This document shows positions 1,037 through 33,376 of a DNA stretch of 64,000 nt, one piece after another. The stretch lies in contig OZ224045.1 in the NCBI GenBank assembly GCA_963665325.3, forward strand, positions 256,001-320,000, read 5' to 3'. Origin of the DNA: Alphaproteobacteria bacterium. Its GTDB lineage: Bacteria > Pseudomonadota > Alphaproteobacteria > Bin95. The translations under genes were made by a program, and so were the position numbers. The notes beneath the pieces are model-generated. The model was not told where the DNA came from. It did no database searches and worked only from the letters and a program-made list of their open reading frames with translations. Numbering within the stretch: position 1 is the first letter of the stretch; each line of letters starts with the position of its first letter.

Positions 1037-1072
1037 CATGACAATTCATGACATCCCATGACACCTCATGAC
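1037..1072 (+). repeat. four CATGAC direct repeats with exact 10-bp period
   Basis: catgacaatt catgacatcc catgacacct catgac at 1037, 1047, 1057, 1067; intergenic. Confidence 0.9.
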
Positions 1073-2391: not shown

Positions 2392-3140
2392 TTGGAGACG
2401 CCGCCCTCCGCCGGGATGACCGCGCCATTCACCATGCGCGACTCGTCCGACGCCAGGAAGAGCCCGATATTGGCGATGTCCTCCGGCTGCCCGATGCTGA
2501 AGGGATACTGGTTGAAGACGGCGAATTGCCCCTCGTTCACGCGTTCCCGGTCGGGCGGCAGGCGCGCGAGGATCCGTTCGGTCAGGATGAGGCCGGGGCA
2601 GATGACATTGGCGCGCACGCCGTCGTCGGAATAGGAGCCGGCGAGCGAGCGGGTGAAGGAGATCAGCCCGCCCTTCGCAGCCGAATAGACATGCGACGGG
2701 ACGAAGCCGCGCAGCGCCGCGACCGACGAGATGTTGATGACCGCGCCGCCGCCGCCCGCGATCATGTGGGGCACGACATGCCGGCACATCAGCATCGGCC
2801 CCTTGAGGTCGAGCGGGATCGTGCGGTCCCAGACTTCGAGATCGACCTCGTGGATCTTCGTGTCCTCGGGGACCGACCCGCCGGCGCAGTTGAACAGGAT
2901 GTCGATGCGTCCGAACGCGGCCATCGCCGCCGCCGCGCAGGCCGCAGCCGAGGCGTCGTCGGTCACATCGGTGCGGTGAAAGACGGCGCCGGTCTCGGCC
3001 GCCGTCGCGGAACCGGTCGCTTCGTCGATCTCGGCCGCCATCACCTTCGCGCCCTCGCGGATAAAGATACCGGTGGCCGCTTTGGCGATGCCGGTTCCCG
3101 CGCCGGTAATCACCGCGATCTTGCCTTCCAGGCGTCCCAT
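2385..3140 (-). CDS. SDR family oxidoreductase
   Basis: TGAGTGIA, NCAG, YSAAKGG, VRANVICPG. Confidence 0.93.
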   Translation of the reverse strand: MGRLEGKIAVITGAGTGIAKAATGIFIREGAKVMAAEIDEATGSATAAETGAVFHRTDVTDDASAAACAAAAMAAFGRIDILFNCAGGSVPEDTKIHEVDLEVWDRTIPLDLKGPMLMCRHVVPHMIAGGGGAVINISSVAALRGFVPSHVYSAAKGGLISFTRSLAGSYSDDGVRANVICPGLILTERILARLPPDRERVNEGQFAVFNQYPFSIGQPEDIANIGLFLASDESRMVNGAVIPAEGGVSNY

Positions 3141-10378: not shown

Positions 10379-11334
10379 CAGGCACGCGCGCCGTCGGCCT
10401 TCTTCGCCTGGCGGGTAAACCCGTAGAGGTCCGCATCGACCGACTGGATGTCTTCCTCGAATTTGAGGAAAACATTGAGCGTTTCCCGAACCATGTCCGC
10501 TTCGAGTTCGTCGGCATGCAGGAGCAGCAGCACGCGCGCCCAGTCGATGGATTCGCTGACGGAGGGATGCTTCTTCAGGTCCAGTTCGCGCACCTGCTGC
10601 ACGAAGGAAACGAGCTGGTATTTGAGGTTGCGGGGAATCTCCGGAATGCGGGCCTGGATGATCTCCCGCTCCAGCCGTGCATCGGGAAACGGCACATAGA
10701 GATGCAGGCATCGCCGCTTGAGCGCGTCGCTCATCTCGCGCGTATTGTTGGAGGTGAGGAACACGACAGGGCGCCGCTCCGCCTTGATCGTCCCGAGTTC
10801 CGGAATCGAGACCTGGAATTCGGAGAGGATTTCCAGAAGGAAGGCTTCGAATTCGTGGTCCGACTTGTCCACTTCATCGATCAGCAACACCGCACCGCCG
10901 GGTTCGCGCAGTGCTTTCAGTAAGGGGCGCGGCGCCAGGAAACGCTCTGAGAAAAAGACATCCGCATGGGCATGCAGCCGGTCCATGGACTCTTTGATTC
11001 CCTGCGCCTCGCCCAGCACTTCTCCCAGCTTGTCCCGCAGAATCTGTGTGTAGAGAAGTTGCTTGGCGTAGCGCCATTCGTACAGCGCCTTGGACTCGTC
11101 CAGACCCTCGTAACACTGCAGCCGGATGAGCGGCAGGTCCAGATAGGCTGCCGTCGTGTTCGCAAGCTCCGTCTTGCCGACGCCGGCAGGGCCCTCGACG
11201 AGAACAGGCTTGCCGAGATGGCCCGCAACATAGATCGCCGTTGCAATCTGGCGCGAACAGATATAGCCGAGTTCCGCGTAGCCTTCGCGGACGCGTTCGA
11301 TGGACTCCAGCTTTTCCAATTGTTCAGGGGTCAT
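10378..11334 (-). CDS. MoxR-family AAA+ ATPase, CoxD-like
   Basis: Walker A GPAGVGKT, RLQCYEGLD, LLIDEVDK, LTSNNTREMSDALKRRC. Confidence 0.9.
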   Translation of the reverse strand: MTPEQLEKLESIERVREGYAELGYICSRQIATAIYVAGHLGKPVLVEGPAGVGKTELANTTAAYLDLPLIRLQCYEGLDESKALYEWRYAKQLLYTQILRDKLGEVLGEAQGIKESMDRLHAHADVFFSERFLAPRPLLKALREPGGAVLLIDEVDKSDHEFEAFLLEILSEFQVSIPELGTIKAERRPVVFLTSNNTREMSDALKRRCLHLYVPFPDARLEREIIQARIPEIPRNLKYQLVSFVQQVRELDLKKHPSVSESIDWARVLLLLHADELEADMVRETLNVFLKFEEDIQSVDADLYGFTRQAKKADGARA

Positions 11335-11459
11335 ATCTTGTCCGGAGAAGAGAGAGCGGCGGATATTGCCCGCTGCTTCGGGTCGATACAACCGATCCAA
11401 GTCGTGTGAAACCGCCGCATGACGCGCGCTTGCTCATATCCCGAATTGCGCCTGCTTTC

Positions 11460-12332
11460 ATGAGGCCGGACAAGCCGGGGCGCGGCATCGCCCTCATGAT
11501 CCTCGCTATGGCGATGCTGGCCGGCCTCGACGCCATCGGCAAACTCGCGACCCAGACCTATCCGGTGTCGCAGGTGCTGTTCCTGCGCTTCGCCATGTTC
11601 CTCGCTTTCGCGCTGGCTCTCGCTGCCCGGCGCGGCGGCATCCGGGCGAGATTGCGCACGCGGCACGTTCGCCTCCAGGTTTTCCGGTCCCTGGTTCTGG
11701 CGCTTGAGATGTGGCTGTTCGTCTATGCGATCTCGAAGCTGGCGCTGGCGGATGTCCACGCGGTTGCGGCCGTTTCGCCTCTGATCGCAACCGCGCTTGC
11801 CGTGCCGATTCTGCGCGAGCGGGTGGGTCCATGGCGCTGGGCCGCAGTGGCGGCAGGCTTCGTCGGCACGCTGATCGTGATACGGCCCGGTATCGGCGTA
11901 TTCGACCCGCTGACCATCGTGCCGCTCGTCGCGGCCTTCGGGTGGGCCTACTACCAGATACTGCTTCGGCGCCTGCGGGAGGAACCTCCCGAGACGACGC
12001 TGCTCTACACCGCGATCGTCGGCGCGGCAGTCTGGAGCGCGTCCGTGCCTTTCGCCTGGCATCCCCCGGACGCTTATGGATGGGCGCTCCTCGGCGCGGT
12101 CGGGGCGATCGGAATTGTCACGCACGGCCTCCTCATTCTTGCAGCGCGGGAGGCCCCGGCATCGGTACTGCAACCGTTCACCTACACCCTTCTGGTCTGG
12201 GCAACGCTTTGGGGATGGGTCGGGTTCGGCGCCTTTCCCGATTCCTGGACGATTGTCGGGGCATCTGTCGTCGTAGCCAGCGGGCTCGTCGCAATCTGGC
12301 GGGAACACCGGCATGCCGCGCGCCATCTGTAA
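11460..12332 (+). CDS. DMT/EamA family transporter
   Basis: About 10 hydrophobic segments; LRERVGPWRW, LIVIRPG, APASVLQPFTY. Confidence 0.88.
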   Translation: MRPDKPGRGIALMILAMAMLAGLDAIGKLATQTYPVSQVLFLRFAMFLAFALALAARRGGIRARLRTRHVRLQVFRSLVLALEMWLFVYAISKLALADVHAVAAVSPLIATALAVPILRERVGPWRWAAVAAGFVGTLIVIRPGIGVFDPLTIVPLVAAFGWAYYQILLRRLREEPPETTLLYTAIVGAAVWSASVPFAWHPPDAYGWALLGAVGAIGIVTHGLLILAAREAPASVLQPFTYTLLVWATLWGWVGFGAFPDSWTIVGASVVVASGLVAIWREHRHAARHL

Positions 12333-12410
12333 CGATCCGGGGAAGCCTGCCATACCGGCCGGGCCCGGCAATTCGTGCATAATGCAGGCAACGCAAATCG
12401 GGGGCTTTCC

Positions 12411-13421
12411 ATGCAGTTCGTTCTGGCAATTCGGGGCCAGTTTCCACCCGGAGACGACATGAATGTGCGTTTCGAAGAGCTGATGGAGCAGGTCCGTCTG
12501 GCGAAACGGCTCGGCTTCAACGGCATCGCCAAGTCCTGCCACTACAGCTCCTCGCCCTGGCAGGAAATCCAGCAGATTCCATTCCTCGCCCGCGCGGCGG
12601 CGGAGGCCCCCGGCCTCACCTTCCTCACCTCCATCGTGCTGCTGCCCCTGCACAAACCGCTGGAGATTGCCGAGCAGGCCGCGGCGCTCGACCTGTTCAC
12701 CGGTGGGCGTTTCATCCTCGGCGTCGGCATCGGCTACCGCGATGTCGAGTTCAAGGCGTTCGGCACCAGCCAGAAGGAGCGCGTGCCGCGGCTGGTGGAG
12801 AATATCCAGGCGATCAGGCGTTTGTGGACCGAAGATGCGGTGACGATGAAGGGCTCGCATTTCGAGCTCGACGGCGCGGTCTGCTCGCTGAAGCCCAGTC
12901 GCCCGCCGCCTATCTGGATCGGGGCCAATGCCGATCCGGCTATCCGCCGGGCAGCCCATATTGCCGACAGCTGGATGATCAACCCGCACAACCGTATCGA
13001 CACGATCCTGCGCCAGATCGAGGTTTACAAGCGGGCCTTGGACGAAGCGGGCAAGCCCTGGCCGGAAACATTGCCGCTGGCGCGGGAGATGTTCGTGGCC
13101 CGCACCCGCGCCGAGGCGATTCGGCTCGCCCGTCCCTATCTCGAAGCCAAATACAAGGCGTATGACAGTTGGGGGCAAGGCGCCGCAATGCCGGAAGGCG
13201 ACAACGATCTCGGCCAGGCGTTCGACGATCTCGCCCGCGACCGGTTCCTGTTCGGCTCGGCCGACGAGGTGGCCGAGCAGATCGTGGGCATGATGCGGGC
13301 GACCGGCGCCAACCAACTGTCCTGCCCCATCCAGTGGCCGGGAATGCCCCATGAGGTTGTCGTCGAACAGATGCATGTGATGGCGGAAGAGGTCGTGCCG
13401 CTTGTGAAGCAGGGACTGTAG
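12411..13421 (+). CDS. LLM class flavin-dependent oxidoreductase
   Basis: LLPLHKPLEIAEQAAALDLFTGGRFILGVGIGYR, PPIWIGAN. Confidence 0.9.
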   Translation: MQFVLAIRGQFPPGDDMNVRFEELMEQVRLAKRLGFNGIAKSCHYSSSPWQEIQQIPFLARAAAEAPGLTFLTSIVLLPLHKPLEIAEQAAALDLFTGGRFILGVGIGYRDVEFKAFGTSQKERVPRLVENIQAIRRLWTEDAVTMKGSHFELDGAVCSLKPSRPPPIWIGANADPAIRRAAHIADSWMINPHNRIDTILRQIEVYKRALDEAGKPWPETLPLAREMFVARTRAEAIRLARPYLEAKYKAYDSWGQGAAMPEGDNDLGQAFDDLARDRFLFGSADEVAEQIVGMMRATGANQLSCPIQWPGMPHEVVVEQMHVMAEEVVPLVKQGL

Positions 13422-13424
13422 GCC

Positions 13425-14441
13425 ATGCAATTCGGGTTGATGACGCGCGGCCAGTACGAGCTTGGCGACGACATGCAGCGCCGCTTCGCGGAGCTTGCAG
13501 AGCAGGTGCGGCTGGCGGACCGCCTCGGGTTTGCGTCCCTTACCAAGGGCTCCCACTACAGCGCCTGGCCTTATCAGGACTTCCAGCAGCTGCCCTATCT
13601 CACCCGGATGATGGCGGAGGCTCCCAATCTGCGGCTCAATGCCGGCATCATCCTGCTGCCGCTGCACAAGCCGCTCGATCTGGCCGAGCAATTGGCCACC
13701 ATGGATGTGATGTCGGGCGGGCGCATGATCGCGGGTGTCGGCCTCGGCTATCGAGATGTGGAGTTCGACGGCTTTGGTACGAACCGCCCGGAACGGATTC
13801 GCCGCTTCGAGGAGAACCTTGAGGCGATGAAACGCCTCTGGACGGAAGACAAAGTCACCATGGAGGGCACGCATTTCGCGCTCCGCGAAGCGTCCTGCCC
13901 CACCAAGCCGGTCCAGAAGCCGCATCCGCCGATCTGGATCGGCGCCAATGCCGACTCCGCCATCCGCCGGGCGGCCCGACTCGGAACCTGCTGGTACATC
14001 AATCCCCACAACCGGATTTCGACGATCCGCGAACAAATGGATGTTTATCGCCGTGCGCTTGACGAACTCGACAAGCCTATGCCCGAGGAGTTGCCGATCC
14101 GCCGCGAGGTGTTCGTCGCCGACAGCCGCGAGGAGGCGATCCGGCTCTGCGGCCCGCATCTGGCAGGCAAATACGCCGTCTATGCCTCCTGGGGCCAGGA
14201 CAAGGCGATGCCGGCTGGGGATTCCGATCTGACCGCTGCCTTCGAGGACCTCGCCCGCGATCGCTTCCTCGTCGGCTCCGCGGACGAAGTGGCAGAGCAG
14301 ATGATCGCGCTGGCGCGCGCCACCGGCGTCAACCACATCGTAATGAGCATCCAGTGGTCCGGCGTGCCGCAAAGCCTTGCGTTGGAGACCTTGCAACGCC
14401 TTGCCGAGGACGTGTTCCCCAAGGTCCGCCAGGGGCTGTAA
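13425..14441 (+). CDS. LLM class flavin-dependent oxidoreductase (tandem paralogue)
   Basis: LLPLHKPLDLAEQLATMDVMSGGR, PHPPIWIGAN; collinear with upstream gene. Confidence 0.9.
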   Translation: MQFGLMTRGQYELGDDMQRRFAELAEQVRLADRLGFASLTKGSHYSAWPYQDFQQLPYLTRMMAEAPNLRLNAGIILLPLHKPLDLAEQLATMDVMSGGRMIAGVGLGYRDVEFDGFGTNRPERIRRFEENLEAMKRLWTEDKVTMEGTHFALREASCPTKPVQKPHPPIWIGANADSAIRRAARLGTCWYINPHNRISTIREQMDVYRRALDELDKPMPEELPIRREVFVADSREEAIRLCGPHLAGKYAVYASWGQDKAMPAGDSDLTAAFEDLARDRFLVGSADEVAEQMIALARATGVNHIVMSIQWSGVPQSLALETLQRLAEDVFPKVRQGL

Positions 14442-14481
14442 CGGCCGCCGCGGGGCCTCATCCCCGGGGAGGGGGTGCGGG

Positions 14482-14970
14482 ATGTCATGAAATGTCATGT
14501 TTTGCAGATTTCCCTGTTTTGTCCTGCCTGCACCAGCCTTTCCTTCCGCTCCCGTTTCGTTCCGACCGCCAGGGAACCCGGGGGGCGTCATGAAATGTCA
14601 TGTTTTGTCGTGTTCCGGGGCATCGCCTGCCTTTCCATGCCGGGTCTCTCCTGCATCGTTTCTCCTTCCCGTTCCCCGCCTCCCGGCAGCGGGACCCTTT
14701 TTCGCGCGTATCGCGCGCGGGGGGGCGGGCGCCCGTTGGCGCCGGCGCGGTTTGCGCGCCTGATTGCGCCTGCGCGCGCCCGTGCGCGTGACCCCGGGCG
14801 CGGGGCGCACGTCTCCCGTCGGTTTCTCAAGGGTCTTTTCGCGCCGGCGCGAACCGGGGGAAGAGGCGGCCCCGCGCGGATGCCGCTCCTTTTCTCCCGC
14901 CTTATATCGGAACGAGCTTCCCGATGTCAATCTTTTTCAGGAAATAATTCTAACAAAAAAAGAACAAACG
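14482..14970 (-). repeat. dispersed ~350-bp structured intergenic element, copy A, plus a partial duplicate of its repeat end (14482-14586)
   Basis: Shares ordered blocks with 32965-33325: GTCATGAAATGTCATGTTTTGTCRTGTTCC, CGCGCGTATCGCG, GCGCCGGCGCGGTT, CCTGATTGCGCC, TTCGCG-CGGCGCGAA, CGCGCGGATGCC, GTCAA. Confidence 0.85.
14901..14930 (-). promoter_or_regulatory. sigma70-like promoter of repeat copy A
   Basis: Minus strand TTGACA-N18-TATAAG, with an AT-rich tract upstream (14931-14970). Confidence 0.6.
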
Positions 14971-15037
14971 ATTGCAATCGGATACAGTTGTCCGATTCTC
15001 CTCCGGCTTGCGGGAGCGGCCGGAGCGTGAGGCCGGG

Positions 15038-15418
15038 TCATTCGACGGCGATGAGCGCGGCGGCGACACGACGGTCTTCCGCCATCAGCACATTGTAGGT
15101 GCGGCAGGCCGCGCCCGTATCCATAGCGTCGGCGACCATACCCTCGGCCCGGATCGCCTCGCGCAACGTCCGGGGAAGAAGTTCCGCCCGGCCGCCGCAG
15201 CCGATGAGGAGGATTTCGGGGGTGTCCTCTCCCTCCGTCAACGGCATGAGGCTTTCCAGCGTAAGGTCCTGGAAGTCCGTCACGGGCCAGGCGGACGCAA
15301 TGTCGGGACGCAACAGGACCGAACCGGCCCACACGGTTCCTGAAATCCGGAAACCCCCGCCCCCGTAGCTTTCGACGACCTGCCGGCCTTGCGGAACGAC
15401 AGGGCTGATGTCGGTCAT
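15038..15418 (-). CDS. Mth938-like domain protein
   Basis: YGGGGFRISG, ILLIGCG, MDTGAACRTYNVLMAEDRRVAAAL; usual position after secF. Confidence 0.92.
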   Translation of the reverse strand: MTDISPVVPQGRQVVESYGGGGFRISGTVWAGSVLLRPDIASAWPVTDFQDLTLESLMPLTEGEDTPEILLIGCGGRAELLPRTLREAIRAEGMVADAMDTGAACRTYNVLMAEDRRVAAALIAVE

Positions 15419-30970: not shown

Positions 30971-31939
30971 TCACAACTGCGCGCGAACCGCCGCCGCAAT
31001 GCCGTCCGGCCCCACGCGCAACATGTCTTCGAGCGGCTTTGCGTAAGGGATCGGGACGCGCGGCGCGCCGAGCCGCTTCACCGGTGCCTTCAGGCTGCCG
31101 AACAGCGCTTCCGAGACGGTTGCGGCGACCTCAGCCCCGAAGCCGCCCACCGAAACCGCTTCATGCGCCACCACCAGCCGCCCTGTCCTGCGCACGGAGG
31201 CCAGCACCGTCTCGCGGTCCCAGGGCCAGAGCGTGCGCAGGTCGATGACCTCCACCGACACGCCCTCCTCCGCAAGTGCCTCGGCCGCAGCATCGGCATT
31301 GCGGACCATGGCGGACCAGGAAACCACGGTTGCGTCGCTGCCCTCGCGGACGATCCGCGCGGTGCCTAGCGCGTCGGGCGGCTCGTCCTCGCCGAGCTCC
31401 TCCTCGATCCCCCACAGGTCCTTGTGTTCCATATAGACGACAGGATCGTCGCTGCGGATGGCGGCCTTCAGCAGGCGCAGATTGTCTCTGGGCGTCGCCG
31501 GCGTGACCACGGTCAGGCCCGGAATATGCACATACCAGGCTTCCAGCGACTGCGAGTGCTGCGCGGCGGAAGACCGCCACATGCCCATCGGCTCGCGGAC
31601 GACCAGCGGCACACCGCCCTGCCCGCCGAACATGTAGCGGGCTTTAGCCGCCTGGTTCACAAGCTCGTCCACGGCGCAGAGCGCGAAATCGGCGAAACGC
31701 ATCTCCACCACAGGGCGCGTTCCCGCCAACGCGGCCCCGACCGAGGCTCCGAGAATCGCGGCTTCGGAAATCGGCGCGTCCGATATCCTGAGCGGCCCGA
31801 ACTCCTCGACCATGCCCGCATACTGTCCGAACACGCCGCCGCGCCCGAGGTCCTCGCCGACTGCCCACACGGTCGGATCGCGGCGCATCTCCTCGGCGAG
31901 CGCCCGCCGTCCAGCCTCCATATAGGTGGTCGTCACCAT
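30971..31939 (-). CDS. 2-oxoacid/acetoin dehydrogenase E1 beta subunit
   Basis: GEDL, DAPISE, PVVEMRFADF, AAQHSQ, EVIDLRTL. Confidence 0.92.
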   Translation of the reverse strand: MVTTTYMEAGRRALAEEMRRDPTVWAVGEDLGRGGVFGQYAGMVEEFGPLRISDAPISEAAILGASVGAALAGTRPVVEMRFADFALCAVDELVNQAAKARYMFGGQGGVPLVVREPMGMWRSSAAQHSQSLEAWYVHIPGLTVVTPATPRDNLRLLKAAIRSDDPVVYMEHKDLWGIEEELGEDEPPDALGTARIVREGSDATVVSWSAMVRNADAAAEALAEEGVSVEVIDLRTLWPWDRETVLASVRRTGRLVVAHEAVSVGGFGAEVAATVSEALFGSLKAPVKRLGAPRVPIPYAKPLEDMLRVGPDGIAAAVRAQL

Positions 31940-32943
31940 CGGAATACTGCCTCGCGCGGGTCGCCCACATCTTGCACATCCGCATAGAGGGCCGCCGTCT
32001 CCGGCCATGGCGCGGCCCTGGCCTCCTCATAGGCGGCTTGCATCTCCGCGACCGCAGCCTCGCGGTGGCCGGCAAGCGTCTCATCGCCTATGCCGTGGGT
32101 CCGCAAACTCGCCGCTGCGCGGGCGACCGGGTCGTCCTTCCAGCGCTCCTCGACTTCCCCGGCGTCGCGGTAGGCGGCCTTGTCCACGGCCGTGTGGCCG
32201 GTCAGCCGCCAGGTCTTCGCCCAGAGGAATTGCGGCCCGCCGCCCTCCAGGATTCGCTCACGCAATTCCGTCGTCACTTCCGCCACACGGTCCACATCGT
32301 TGCCGTCCACGGCACGCGAGGGAATGCCCAAGGACTCGGCGCGCGCCGCCGGTCCGGGGCCTCCCGTCATCGCCTCCGTTCGCGTCGTCGCGGCGAAGGC
32401 ATTGTCCTCGCACACGAACAGCACAGGCAGGTCGAACACCCGCGCCCAGTTCAAGCCTTCCAGGAAGGGCCCGCGATTGACCGCGCCGTCGCCGAAGATG
32501 CAGCAGACGATGCGCCGTTCGCCGCGCAGCCGGATGGCATGGGCCGCGCCGGCGGCGATGTTGATATTCGCTCCGACGACCCCGTTGGCGCCGAGCATCC
32601 CGACCGAGAAGTCGGCAATGTGCATGGAGCCGCCCTTGCCGCCACAATTGCCGCCGTCCCGCCCGAAAAGCTCGCGCATCATGGCGATGGCCGACGCGCC
32701 CTTCTCCAGCGTGTGACCGTGTCCGCGATGGGTACTTAGCAGCAGGTCATCCCGCGCGAGGCTGCCGACCACACCTACCGCGCAAGCCTCCTGGCCGATG
32801 GAGGGATGGATAGCGCCCAGCACCAGCCCTTCCTCCAGCGCGGCGACGGCCTGCTCCTCGAAGGCCCGGATGCGGTGCATCCGCCGATGCCGGTCCGCCA
32901 GCCGTTCGAGATCGAGATCGAGATTGGGCCGCAGGCCGCTCAT
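31933..32943 (-). CDS. 2-oxoacid/acetoin dehydrogenase E1 alpha subunit
   Basis: GQEA, STHRGHGH, GKGGSMH, FGDGAVN...EDN. Confidence 0.92.
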   Translation of the reverse strand: MSGLRPNLDLDLERLADRHRRMHRIRAFEEQAVAALEEGLVLGAIHPSIGQEACAVGVVGSLARDDLLLSTHRGHGHTLEKGASAIAMMRELFGRDGGNCGGKGGSMHIADFSVGMLGANGVVGANINIAAGAAHAIRLRGERRIVCCIFGDGAVNRGPFLEGLNWARVFDLPVLFVCEDNAFAATTRTEAMTGGPGPAARAESLGIPSRAVDGNDVDRVAEVTTELRERILEGGGPQFLWAKTWRLTGHTAVDKAAYRDAGEVEERWKDDPVARAAASLRTHGIGDETLAGHREAAVAEMQAAYEEARAAPWPETAALYADVQDVGDPREAVFRW

Positions 32944-32964
32944 GGCCGACCGTCCCCCCGGAAA

Positions 32965-33325
32965 TTGTCATGAAATGTCATGTTTTGTCATGTTCCGCTG
33001 TTGCGGCGGCCTTTCCTCCATCGCGTTTCGTTCCCTCCGCGCTCCTGCTCGCCGGGCCGGGACGCGGACCCTGTTCCGCGCGTATCGCGTGCGCGCCCGG
33101 GCGCGCGTGTCGCGCCGGCGCGGTTCGCGCACCTGATTGCGCCCGCGCGCGAGGCGAACGCAGGACACACTTCTCCCCTCCGTTTCTTCGGGGTTTTTTC
33201 GCGGCGGCGCGAAAGGGAAGGAAGCGGTCCGCGCGGATGCCACTTCCTCTCTCGCTGCCCAATATTGGCACGAATGTTCCTGGAGTCAAGCCCATGAAGG
33301 AATTAAATCTGAATTTGTGAACGAA
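32965..33325 (-). repeat. dispersed ~350-bp structured intergenic element, copy B
   Basis: Same ordered blocks as 14587-14970; GTCATG at 32967, 32977, 32987. Confidence 0.85.
33261..33290 (-). promoter_or_regulatory. sigma70-like promoter of repeat copy B
   Basis: Minus strand CTTGAC-N17-CAATAT (equivalently TTGACT-N17-AATATT); AT-rich tract 33300-33320 upstream. Confidence 0.6.
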
Positions 33326-33343
33326 CAGCCTGCACGGCCCCCT

Positions 33344-33376
33344 CCGTCATGCCCGGAAAAAGTTCGGGCATGACGG
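33344..33376. terminator. 12-bp perfect inverted repeat (REP-like hairpin / possible terminator of the acyl-CoA dehydrogenase gene)
   Basis: CCGTCATGCCCG-N9-CGGGCATGACGG, 35 bp downstream of the stop at 33411; no clear U-tract. Confidence 0.55.

Follow-up and report, generated by a model that had tools for sequence, protein, structure and literature searches.

A dispersed family of intergenic units with a phased CATGAC tail in related alphaproteobacterial genomes, and its short, probably non-autonomous members in one 64-kb stretch

Copies A and B in the window

The DNA analysed here is a stretch of 64,000 nt, called the window throughout, from contig OZ224045.1 of an Alphaproteobacteria bacterium (GenBank assembly GCA_963665325.3, positions 256,001 to 320,000). 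An earlier note on its sequence had described an unannotated dispersed element in two intergenic copies, copy A (14482-14970) and copy B (32965-33325), which were said to share a series of blocks in the same order when read on the minus strand. All of the shared blocks and their order were confirmed by alignment: 14470-14990 (-) aligned with 32930-33345 (-) at a mean column identity of 76%, with indels of 3, 13, 1, 4 and 10 nt, and the pairwise similarity of the two copies was 70% over 334 nt. The reading preferred here, at a probability of about 60%, is that copy A is a non-autonomous and probably decaying member, without an open reading frame (ORF) of its own, of a lineage-specific family of cassettes composed of promoter, leader, ORF and tail.

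Copy A was confirmed to lie between convergent genes, a luciferase-like monooxygenase gene (plus strand, ending at 14441) and a DUF498 gene (minus strand, ending at 15038) that comes after yajC-secD-secF. Copy B lies between an acyl-CoA dehydrogenase gene and an E1-alpha/E1-beta dehydrogenase gene pair, all on the minus strand; the end of its tail is 22 nt from the E1-alpha ATG (32943), on the same strand and with that gene directly downstream. Features were assigned as follows.

14931-14970, minus strand: AT-rich tract of copy A upstream of the promoter-like head, seen in the sequence and aligned as an AT-rich block in 20 copies
14901-14930, minus strand: promoter-like head of copy A, TTGACA (14930-14925), 17-18 nt, then ATATAA/TATAAG; the homologous column reads TTGACn in 25/33 copies
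14863-14889, minus strand: 5' hairpin P1 of copy A, an 8-pair stem with one A.C mismatch in this copy
14690-14862, minus strand: GC-rich leader ("core") of copy A (nhmmer E=9.6e-51), with a near-invariant block at 14738-14779
14588-14656, minus strand: putative remnant mini-ORF of copy A, 22 codons, GAAGGAG 5 nt before the ATG, stop in the tail; translation MQERPGMERQAMPRNTTKHDIS
14587-14612, minus strand: tail 1 of copy A, three units at a 10-nt period (CACGAC, CATGAC, CATGAC)
14484-14499, minus strand: tail 2 of copy A, two CATGAC units, 87 nt past tail 1
33261-33325, minus strand: AT-rich tract and promoter-like head of copy B, TTGACT, 17 nt, AATATT
33221-33246, minus strand: hairpin P1 of copy B, from the alignment and pair counts
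33066-33220, minus strand: GC-rich leader of copy B (nhmmer E=8.4e-55)
32968-33021, minus strand: putative remnant mini-ORF of copy B, 17 codons, ending in the tail; translation MEERPPQQRNMTKHDIS
32967-32992, minus strand: tail of copy B, three CATGAC units; the E1-alpha gene (31933-32943) comes next
1037-1072, plus strand: tail-only site without a core, four CATGAC units, with enoyl-CoA hydratase and RraA-like genes on either side

Within the window, the exact 12-13-mers named in the earlier note were present in copies A and B only, and matches to them with 1-2 mismatches elsewhere in the window were at chance level (17 versus 13.9 expected; 15 versus 15.9). The pattern CATGAC-N4-CATGAC, allowing one mismatch at most, matched 9 times versus 0.25 expected, a count reached in 0/100 shuffles. 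The repeat at the heart of the (CATGAC N4)x3 tail that had been described is thus well above chance, with the correction that the first unit of the main tail of copy A is CACGAC. Two arrays had been overlooked, namely the two-unit second tail of copy A and the third tail, of four units and without a GC core, at 1037-1072 (+). A duplication of linker plus tail was considered as the origin of tail 2 and rejected, as the tail alone matches and the segment between the two tails holds no clear copy of the linker. A search of the window with the family profile (nhmmer) returned only two cores, those of copies A and B, and the start of the profile match puts the 5' edge of family similarity in copy A at ~14953.

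Distribution of the family

Public genomes were scanned with a three-unit CATGAC tail pattern, and at least 106 stretches matched. The genome stretches retrieved in this way, mainly from related metagenome-assembled genomes (MAGs), are numbered as loci in the style L001-L106, and loci L081-L106 carry a flank of only ~300 nt each. At least 61 of the stretches belong to at least 15 MAG genomes of one clade, named 'Alphaproteobacteria bacterium' or 'Rhodospirillaceae bacterium', with a maximum of 9 per genome among the matches listed; the remaining 45 among the matches listed come from scattered, unrelated taxa and include microsatellite-like runs. By eye, the tail was on the minus strand in 44 and on the plus strand in 17 of the 61 clade matches listed, which is probably an effect of the listing and not biology.

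A profile built from the cores of copies A and B gave 38 further matches, and a 20-copy core profile gave 47 matches in the retrieved loci, all on the same strand as the tail. With core and tail matches in at least 15 related MAG genomes, the proposal of a dispersed multicopy family was borne out. After merging, 46 of 48 cores had a same-strand tail downstream and the other two ran off the end of the locus; as the loci had been retrieved by their tails, this statistic is biased, and the unbiased cases are the two cores of the window, both followed by a tail. The closest copy was usually a non-orthologous one in the same genome (L007/L040, 96%; L070/L022, L030/L008 and L021/L004, 92-93%). Pairwise similarity spans head to tail and stops there, with a 5' edge that is ragged among recent duplicates; 20 full copies align from the AT-rich tract through the head, and the DNA upstream of that tract is divergent.

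Taken by themselves, the two cores of the window, 70-76% identical, could be remnants of one regulatory region that underwent local segmental duplication, with no element involved. This reading is already contradicted by the similarities of copies A and B to L023, a locus in another genome (82% and 78%), to which each is nearer than to the other copy, and 47 further core matches lie in at least 15 other genomes beside unrelated genes; it is barely credible.

The tail-only site at 1037-1072, 79 nt upstream of the RraA-like gene, has orthologous counterparts in L042 and L100, the number of units being 3 or 4. The surrounding region, tail included, is ~90% identical to L042 (over 4 kb) and to L100 (over 532 nt), and the organism of the window is close to the two clade MAGs from which these loci come. 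Among the retrieved loci no orthologous empty site was found. Copy A gave no match at the DNA level in phage and plasmid collections, and a limited full-text literature search (mobile promoters; intergenic repeats and miniature inverted-repeat transposable elements (MITEs) in sponge symbionts) returned nothing describing a cassette with a CATGAC tail.

Other repeats were met beside the units. About 455 nt in L012 (oriented 661-1180), just upstream of the core, are missing from the orthologue L035 and consist of other dispersed palindromic repeats, which occur in both orientations at 10 or more other loci; the intergenic DNA of these genomes is a mosaic of several repeat families, with several alternative pre-tail modules. 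A motif starting TGGAGTGGGCCC is common 8-10 nt past the tail (L016, L019, L028, L059, L088, L005, L007). In L032 (oriented 2036-2526) its reverse complement lies 4 nt before the tail, where an ORF with an rve integrase-core domain ends, beside IstB; by eye the motif resembles the inverted-repeat end of an insertion sequence (IS) that may insert beside tails.

ORFs in full-length relatives and their deletion derivatives

In full-length relatives the core is followed by a ribosome-binding site and an ATG, and an ORF lies between leader and tail. The ORF termed X1, in L036 and L025, encodes a protein of 322 or 345 aa with an N-terminal Terminase_2 domain (Pfam E=2.8e-13 and 2.5e-10; phrog_51), and a profile search of the PDB matched only the DNA-binding domains of SF6/SPP1 small terminases (TerS). 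The match to phage small terminases extends over the first ~75 residues only; X1 is twice as long as a typical TerS, its C-terminal part being long, acidic and helical or disordered. Its AlphaFold model is all-helical and confident only in the helix-turn-helix region (mean pLDDT 57.7). The last codons and the stop of X1 are the tail itself (...HDIS and ...HDRT, each before the stop), and when an alignment of 30 X1 proteins was read by eye, 28 had the tail-encoded end HD[IKR][SAT]. The C-terminal letters of the mini-ORF of copy A are the same as those of these tail-encoded ends.

Database relatives of X1 numbered 299 among the scored candidates, the best 120 of them at 67-91% identity. Several distinct 90%-identity clusters lie on one contig, and X1 is therefore multicopy within genomes. 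The more distant MAG of L048 has an X1-like gene, 57% identical, with a degenerate tail of four units after it, phased at 10 nt. A TerS-family protein beside the repeats was present in L036, L025 and L019 and absent from the window. The earlier note had suggested looking for copies that abut a recombinase, reverse transcriptase or HUH gene; one full-length relative does abut a candidate element gene, the TerS-like one, which is of none of these three kinds.

The ORF termed X2, in L028 and L077 (209 aa, 54% identity over 171 aa between the two), belongs to no family and also ends in the tail. Kinship between X1 and X2 was considered and rejected, the matches being compositional only (E ~6e-4 with the composition correction off). 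In L005 an isochorismatase-family ORF lies between core and tail and ends 42 nt before the tail.

Short members keep the head, the first codons and the tail, and several map onto the longer units as internal deletions. Positions 264-588 of L021 match 1275-1590 of L036, and 590-636 of L021 match 2481-2527 of L036, such that L021 retains, after the core, 44 nt from the start of X1 joined to its final 35 nt and the tail. Loci L007, L012, L035, L040 and L074 map likewise onto the X2 cassette of L028, L074 retaining an extra internal piece of that cassette.

MITEs and Correia elements are short, non-autonomous, intergenic derivatives that can donate promoters or make antisense RNA. An ordinary MITE, that is, a deletion derivative of a DDE-type IS moved in trans by the transposase of that IS, would account for units that are small, multicopy, intergenic and deletion derivatives of longer ones, and some copies do have IS genes as neighbours (L036, IS110-type and DDE_Tnp_1; L032, rve and IstB). 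The longer units, however, encode TerS-like or unassigned proteins and no transposase, the 5' ends are ragged among recent duplicates, and neither copy A nor copy B has terminal inverted repeats linking its head end to its tail end, in agreement with the earlier note. An ordinary MITE is accordingly held to be most improbable.

The CATGAC tail

Adjacent CATGAC units within 60 nt of each other were exactly 10 nt apart in 184 of 201 cases. With one mismatch allowed per unit, arrays of 2, 3, 4 and 5 units numbered 12, 64, 19 and 1, a distribution that the scan pattern shifts toward 3 or more units. The spacers are non-uniform, AAAA being the commonest, followed by the A-T-rich ATTT and ATTC. Owing to the 10-nt period, 26 nt suffice for TGA and ATG to occur in every frame; the period also equals one helical turn. 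Unstructured, G-poor sequence can serve as a loading site for a termination factor. The tail may be a three-frame translational stop, a binding array for a protein (TerS-like or other) or a loading site for a termination factor.

One alternative takes the tail, as double-stranded DNA, to be the working part: a phased array for a TerS-like protein (pac-like) or for another regulator that binds direct repeats, with the cassettes and remnants as dispersed sites. The spacing of exactly one helical turn and the tight array size of 3-4 would fit, although the period is explained equally well by stop and start codons in three frames. The tail lies at the 3' end of a TerS-like gene in close and distant genomes, the nearest solved relatives of that protein are SPP1/SF6-type small-terminase DNA-binding domains, and tails without a core persist at orthologous places; the X2 cassettes, on the other hand, have the tail without a TerS domain. 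In phages of the SPP1/SF6 type, the pac region by the start codon of terS holds direct repeats (PMC4737164). No large terminase (terL), portal or capsid gene was found in the flanks examined (88 ORFs scanned). This alternative is considered rather unlikely. Its extension, in which the tails are pac-like arrays for a dispersed TerS-like family and copy A, copy B and the 1037-1072 site are start points for headful packaging by a phage-like or gene transfer agent-like system, is very doubtful; if true, it would mean sequence-addressed transfer of host DNA, or a new selfish element that spreads by being packaged.

A regulon or operator role for the tail was rejected, the downstream genes being unrelated. 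For a direct-repeat site of OmpR/PhoB type, the period of 10 was found and a coherent regulon was not (unrelated neighbours, 11 convergent loci). The tail as a promoter, suggested by a scan that returned ATGACA-16-GACAAT in copy B and L007, was also set aside, as the match is not general and relies on bases after the tail.

In many relatives the tail ATGs create false N-terminal extensions, with ORFs starting 30-60 codons before the Pfam domain. In the window, an ATG within the copy A tail opens a frame of 1086 codons (11331-14591, minus strand) that crosses both monooxygenase genes in antisense orientation. Pfam gave no match to it, and it is a shadow frame of the sort usual in high-GC DNA.

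Promoter-like head, hairpin P1 and GC-rich core

In 33 copies with a head, TTGACn was present in 25 and TAnnnT in 28, the latter at a spacing of 15 nt in 25 of the 28 and preceded by TG, two bases before it, in 18. In copies A and B and in those of L023, L005 and L054, different AT-rich hexamers occur at a distance of 16-18 nt. The consensus of the head is TTGACn, ~15 nt, TGnTAnnAT. Alphaproteobacterial housekeeping promoters tolerate shorter spacers. A strict sigma-70 scan gave 2 sites in copy B versus 0.1 in shuffles, the head matching at 9/12 positions. We infer a promoter function for the head from its conservation and position.

Directly after the head, a hairpin (P1) with an 8-pair stem had 91.8% of cells paired in 32 distinct copies. 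Four of the eight pairs were changed on both sides. The observed pairing score was reached in 0/500 shuffles, and slid controls gave 45-68% versus 84%. On the element strand G:U pairs outnumbered A.C (17 versus 5), and the element strand is therefore favoured as the RNA. P1 of one subfamily has a U-rich run after it and, in L059, was flagged as terminator-like. P1 overlaps the GGCATCCGCGCG block of the earlier note, where it had not been called a hairpin.

The core, in an alignment of 26 copies, consists of near-invariant blocks (e.g. around 14738-14779) between spacers that vary in sequence and length. Four stems in it were tested, three of them named in the earlier note (the AATCAGG hairpin, the GCGCCGGCGC palindrome and the CGCGCG-ATA-CGCGCG hairpin) and one added (a CCCC/GGGG stem). 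Jointly, 80.0% of cells were paired versus 79.7% in shuffles, and 168/500 shuffles were as high. RNAalifold gave -7.4 kcal/mol for the element strand, with 0 compensatory pairs, and -10.25 for the opposite strand, with 2. Single-sequence folding of both strands of copies A and B was uninformative (z-scores -1.76 and -0.77 on the element strand, -0.76 and -0.10 on the other). The description of a structured GC core did not hold up, as covariation backs P1 only. Opposite-strand terminator-like hairpins with T-runs lie inside the core at 14681-14694 (+) and 33178-33193 (+), and in L007 at 2739-2754 and 2868-2882 (+). They arise from A-runs next to GC stems on the element strand and could halt transcription from the tail side; their counts in copies A and B were not clearly above shuffles.

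One protein running through the core was rejected: core length ranges over 150-233 nt across copies and the indels are not multiples of three. The view that constraint falls on nucleic acid and not on protein is thus upheld for the core, where such indels exclude a protein; it fails at the tail, which in full-length relatives provides the last codons and the stop of a gene for a conserved protein.

The unit could also act as RNA, as a multicopy small RNA or a riboswitch-like leader whose folded GC core senses a signal and controls what lies downstream. Near-invariant blocks between variable spacers in the 26 copies, the support for P1 with its G:U pairs on the element strand, and P1 plus a U-rich run in L059, which would suit attenuation, are what such a reading would predict. 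The core itself offers no compensatory pairs and four candidate helices no better than shuffles, and folding z-scores on the element strand are -1.76 and -0.77. No Rfam family was found: the whole window had 0 matches to Rfam 15 at the gathering score, and sensitive searches of both copies gave a best sub-threshold hit of 22.8 bits against a gathering score of 155, in line with the earlier proposal of an undescribed family. No same-strand (minus) terminator-like site was predicted in copy A or B, and the downstream genes are without a common function, with 11 Pfam-supported convergent loci. The RNA reading is unlikely.

Neighbouring genes

The first same-strand ORFs after the tails encode CysRS, methionine aminopeptidase, GST, SDR, enoyl-CoA hydratase, urocanase, hydantoinase, P450, solute-binding proteins and others; the 25 downstream genes named by Pfam belong to many unrelated families with no common function. 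A Pfam-supported co-directional downstream gene was found at 27 loci (including copy B and the 1037 site) and a Pfam-supported convergent gene at 11 (including copy A), with two more convergent on codon statistics only; these counts include orthologous pairs and are not independent. The idea that a tail always precedes a same-strand gene was found to be wrong, 6 of 12 ORFs without a Pfam match being shadows of real opposite-strand genes. With 11 convergent loci, the setting of copy A is therefore common and not exceptional, and the unit behaves as self-contained.

Interpretation and relation to known systems

Read on one strand, the family unit consists of an AT-rich tract, a promoter-like head, P1, a GC-rich leader of 150-230 nt, a ribosome-binding site with its ATG, an ORF and 3-4 tail units. 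Of the two possibilities in the earlier note, an undescribed non-coding RNA family or a non-autonomous mobile element, the latter fits better, short copies being internal deletions of longer units; that the RNA of copy A represents a structured non-coding RNA family is unlikely. The head would fire as a housekeeping-type promoter; P1 would mark where the RNA begins and serve to stabilise it or as an early attenuator; and the tail would close any remnant ORF through TGA in three frames. Copy B would supply a promoter and a 5' untranslated region (UTR) to the E1 dehydrogenase operon. Copy A would read antisense into the convergent monooxygenase gene, as had been proposed, and may give a minus-strand RNA of ~300-400 nt.

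Several observations weigh against placing copy A in a mobile cassette family. Neither X1 nor X2 is present in the window, and what copies A and B have in common with the ORF-bearing cassettes is confined to core and tail; since no ORF remnant is left beyond the tail-encoded letters, their descent from such cassettes rests on family membership. No transposase or recombinase belonging to the unit was found among the flanking ORFs scanned, and with terminal inverted repeats likewise missing, mobility is inferred from distribution only. X1 was considered as a hidden transposase; its model shows no catalytic fold and argues against this, at low confidence. Of four heads put through the strict sigma-70 scan, that of copy B was flagged and those of A, L007 and L059 were not, and the distance common between the hexamers, 15 nt, is short. 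For L012/L035, the only orthologous pair compared, identity was 88.3% in the core, 76% in the head and 100% in the tail, and 91.3% at third codon positions of the neighbouring gene; as core and head are no better conserved than third codon positions, individual copies do not look constrained. The block pattern is most likely what would be expected if selection acts only on active source copies, the conserved blocks then reflecting the needs of those copies and not a function of each inserted one.

Putative mobile promoters (Nijveen, Matus-Garcia, van Passel) are similar promoter-bearing non-coding sequences before unrelated genes, within and across related genomes, recognised by at least 80% identity over at least 50 nt between -150 and -50 of the start codon; Correia elements are named among promoter-bearing repeats in the same paper (PMC3575422). 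Like them, the cassette unit is outside Rfam and its mode of movement is not known, and similar sequence before non-paralogous genes in one genome was found here too (L070/L022, 92%; L007/L040, 96%). Unlike them, the unit is ~400 nt long, has defined head and tail modules, can enclose an ORF and faces a convergent gene at 11 Pfam-supported loci. The A/B pair, at 70% over 334 nt, is as a whole below 80%, copy A is without a downstream gene, and the position of the unit relative to start codons varies among loci.

The short copies resemble MITEs in being multicopy deletion derivatives of longer units, and differ from MITEs and Correia elements in lacking terminal inverted repeats and a transposase parent and in their strict polarity, with different 5' and 3' ends. 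BIME/REP and RIME are modular, clade-specific intergenic repeats of proteobacteria built of short palindromic units. The cassettes share with these a modular, clade-specific character, with alternative pre-tail modules and palindromic repeats at the same loci, and are set apart by the promoter-like head, the ORF or remnant and the direct-repeat tail. With SPP1/SF6 terS-pac modules (PMC4737164), the family shares a TerS-family protein with short direct repeats in its own gene region; X1, unlike those modules, stands alone, is multicopy and twice the usual length, and has no terL or capsid genes nearby.

If the cassette reading is true, what the family distributes over the chromosome is a promoter-like head and leader together with a tail that offers stops and starts in three frames. 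The unit would provide host operons with a ready-made promoter and 5' UTR, as copy B would for a thiamine pyrophosphate-dependent E1 dehydrogenase operon, and would fire antisense into genes, as copy A would for a monooxygenase, and would bear on regulatory rewiring in these uncultured bacteria. A multicopy TerS-like gene with a phased 3' repeat is unusual, and this candidate protein-DNA pair is the part most worth following. For annotation, the tail ATGs explain long spurious ORFs, and the profile can be used for masking or annotating the units.

Other observations in the window

A perfect 12-bp inverted repeat with a 9-nt loop and GTCATG/CATGAC inside lies at 33344-33376, between the acyl-CoA dehydrogenase stop and copy B; similar hairpins ('gtcatgcccgg...') were seen by eye after tails elsewhere, e.g. 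in L094. The window is rich in catabolic and transport genes, encoding three luciferase-like monooxygenases, a Rieske oxygenase, enoyl-CoA hydratases, thiolase-like proteins, acyl-CoA dehydrogenase, ligases, and TRAP and ABC transport. Housekeeping genes lie amid the catabolic ones (secDF-yajC, PBP1-type, rseP-like, cdsA-like).

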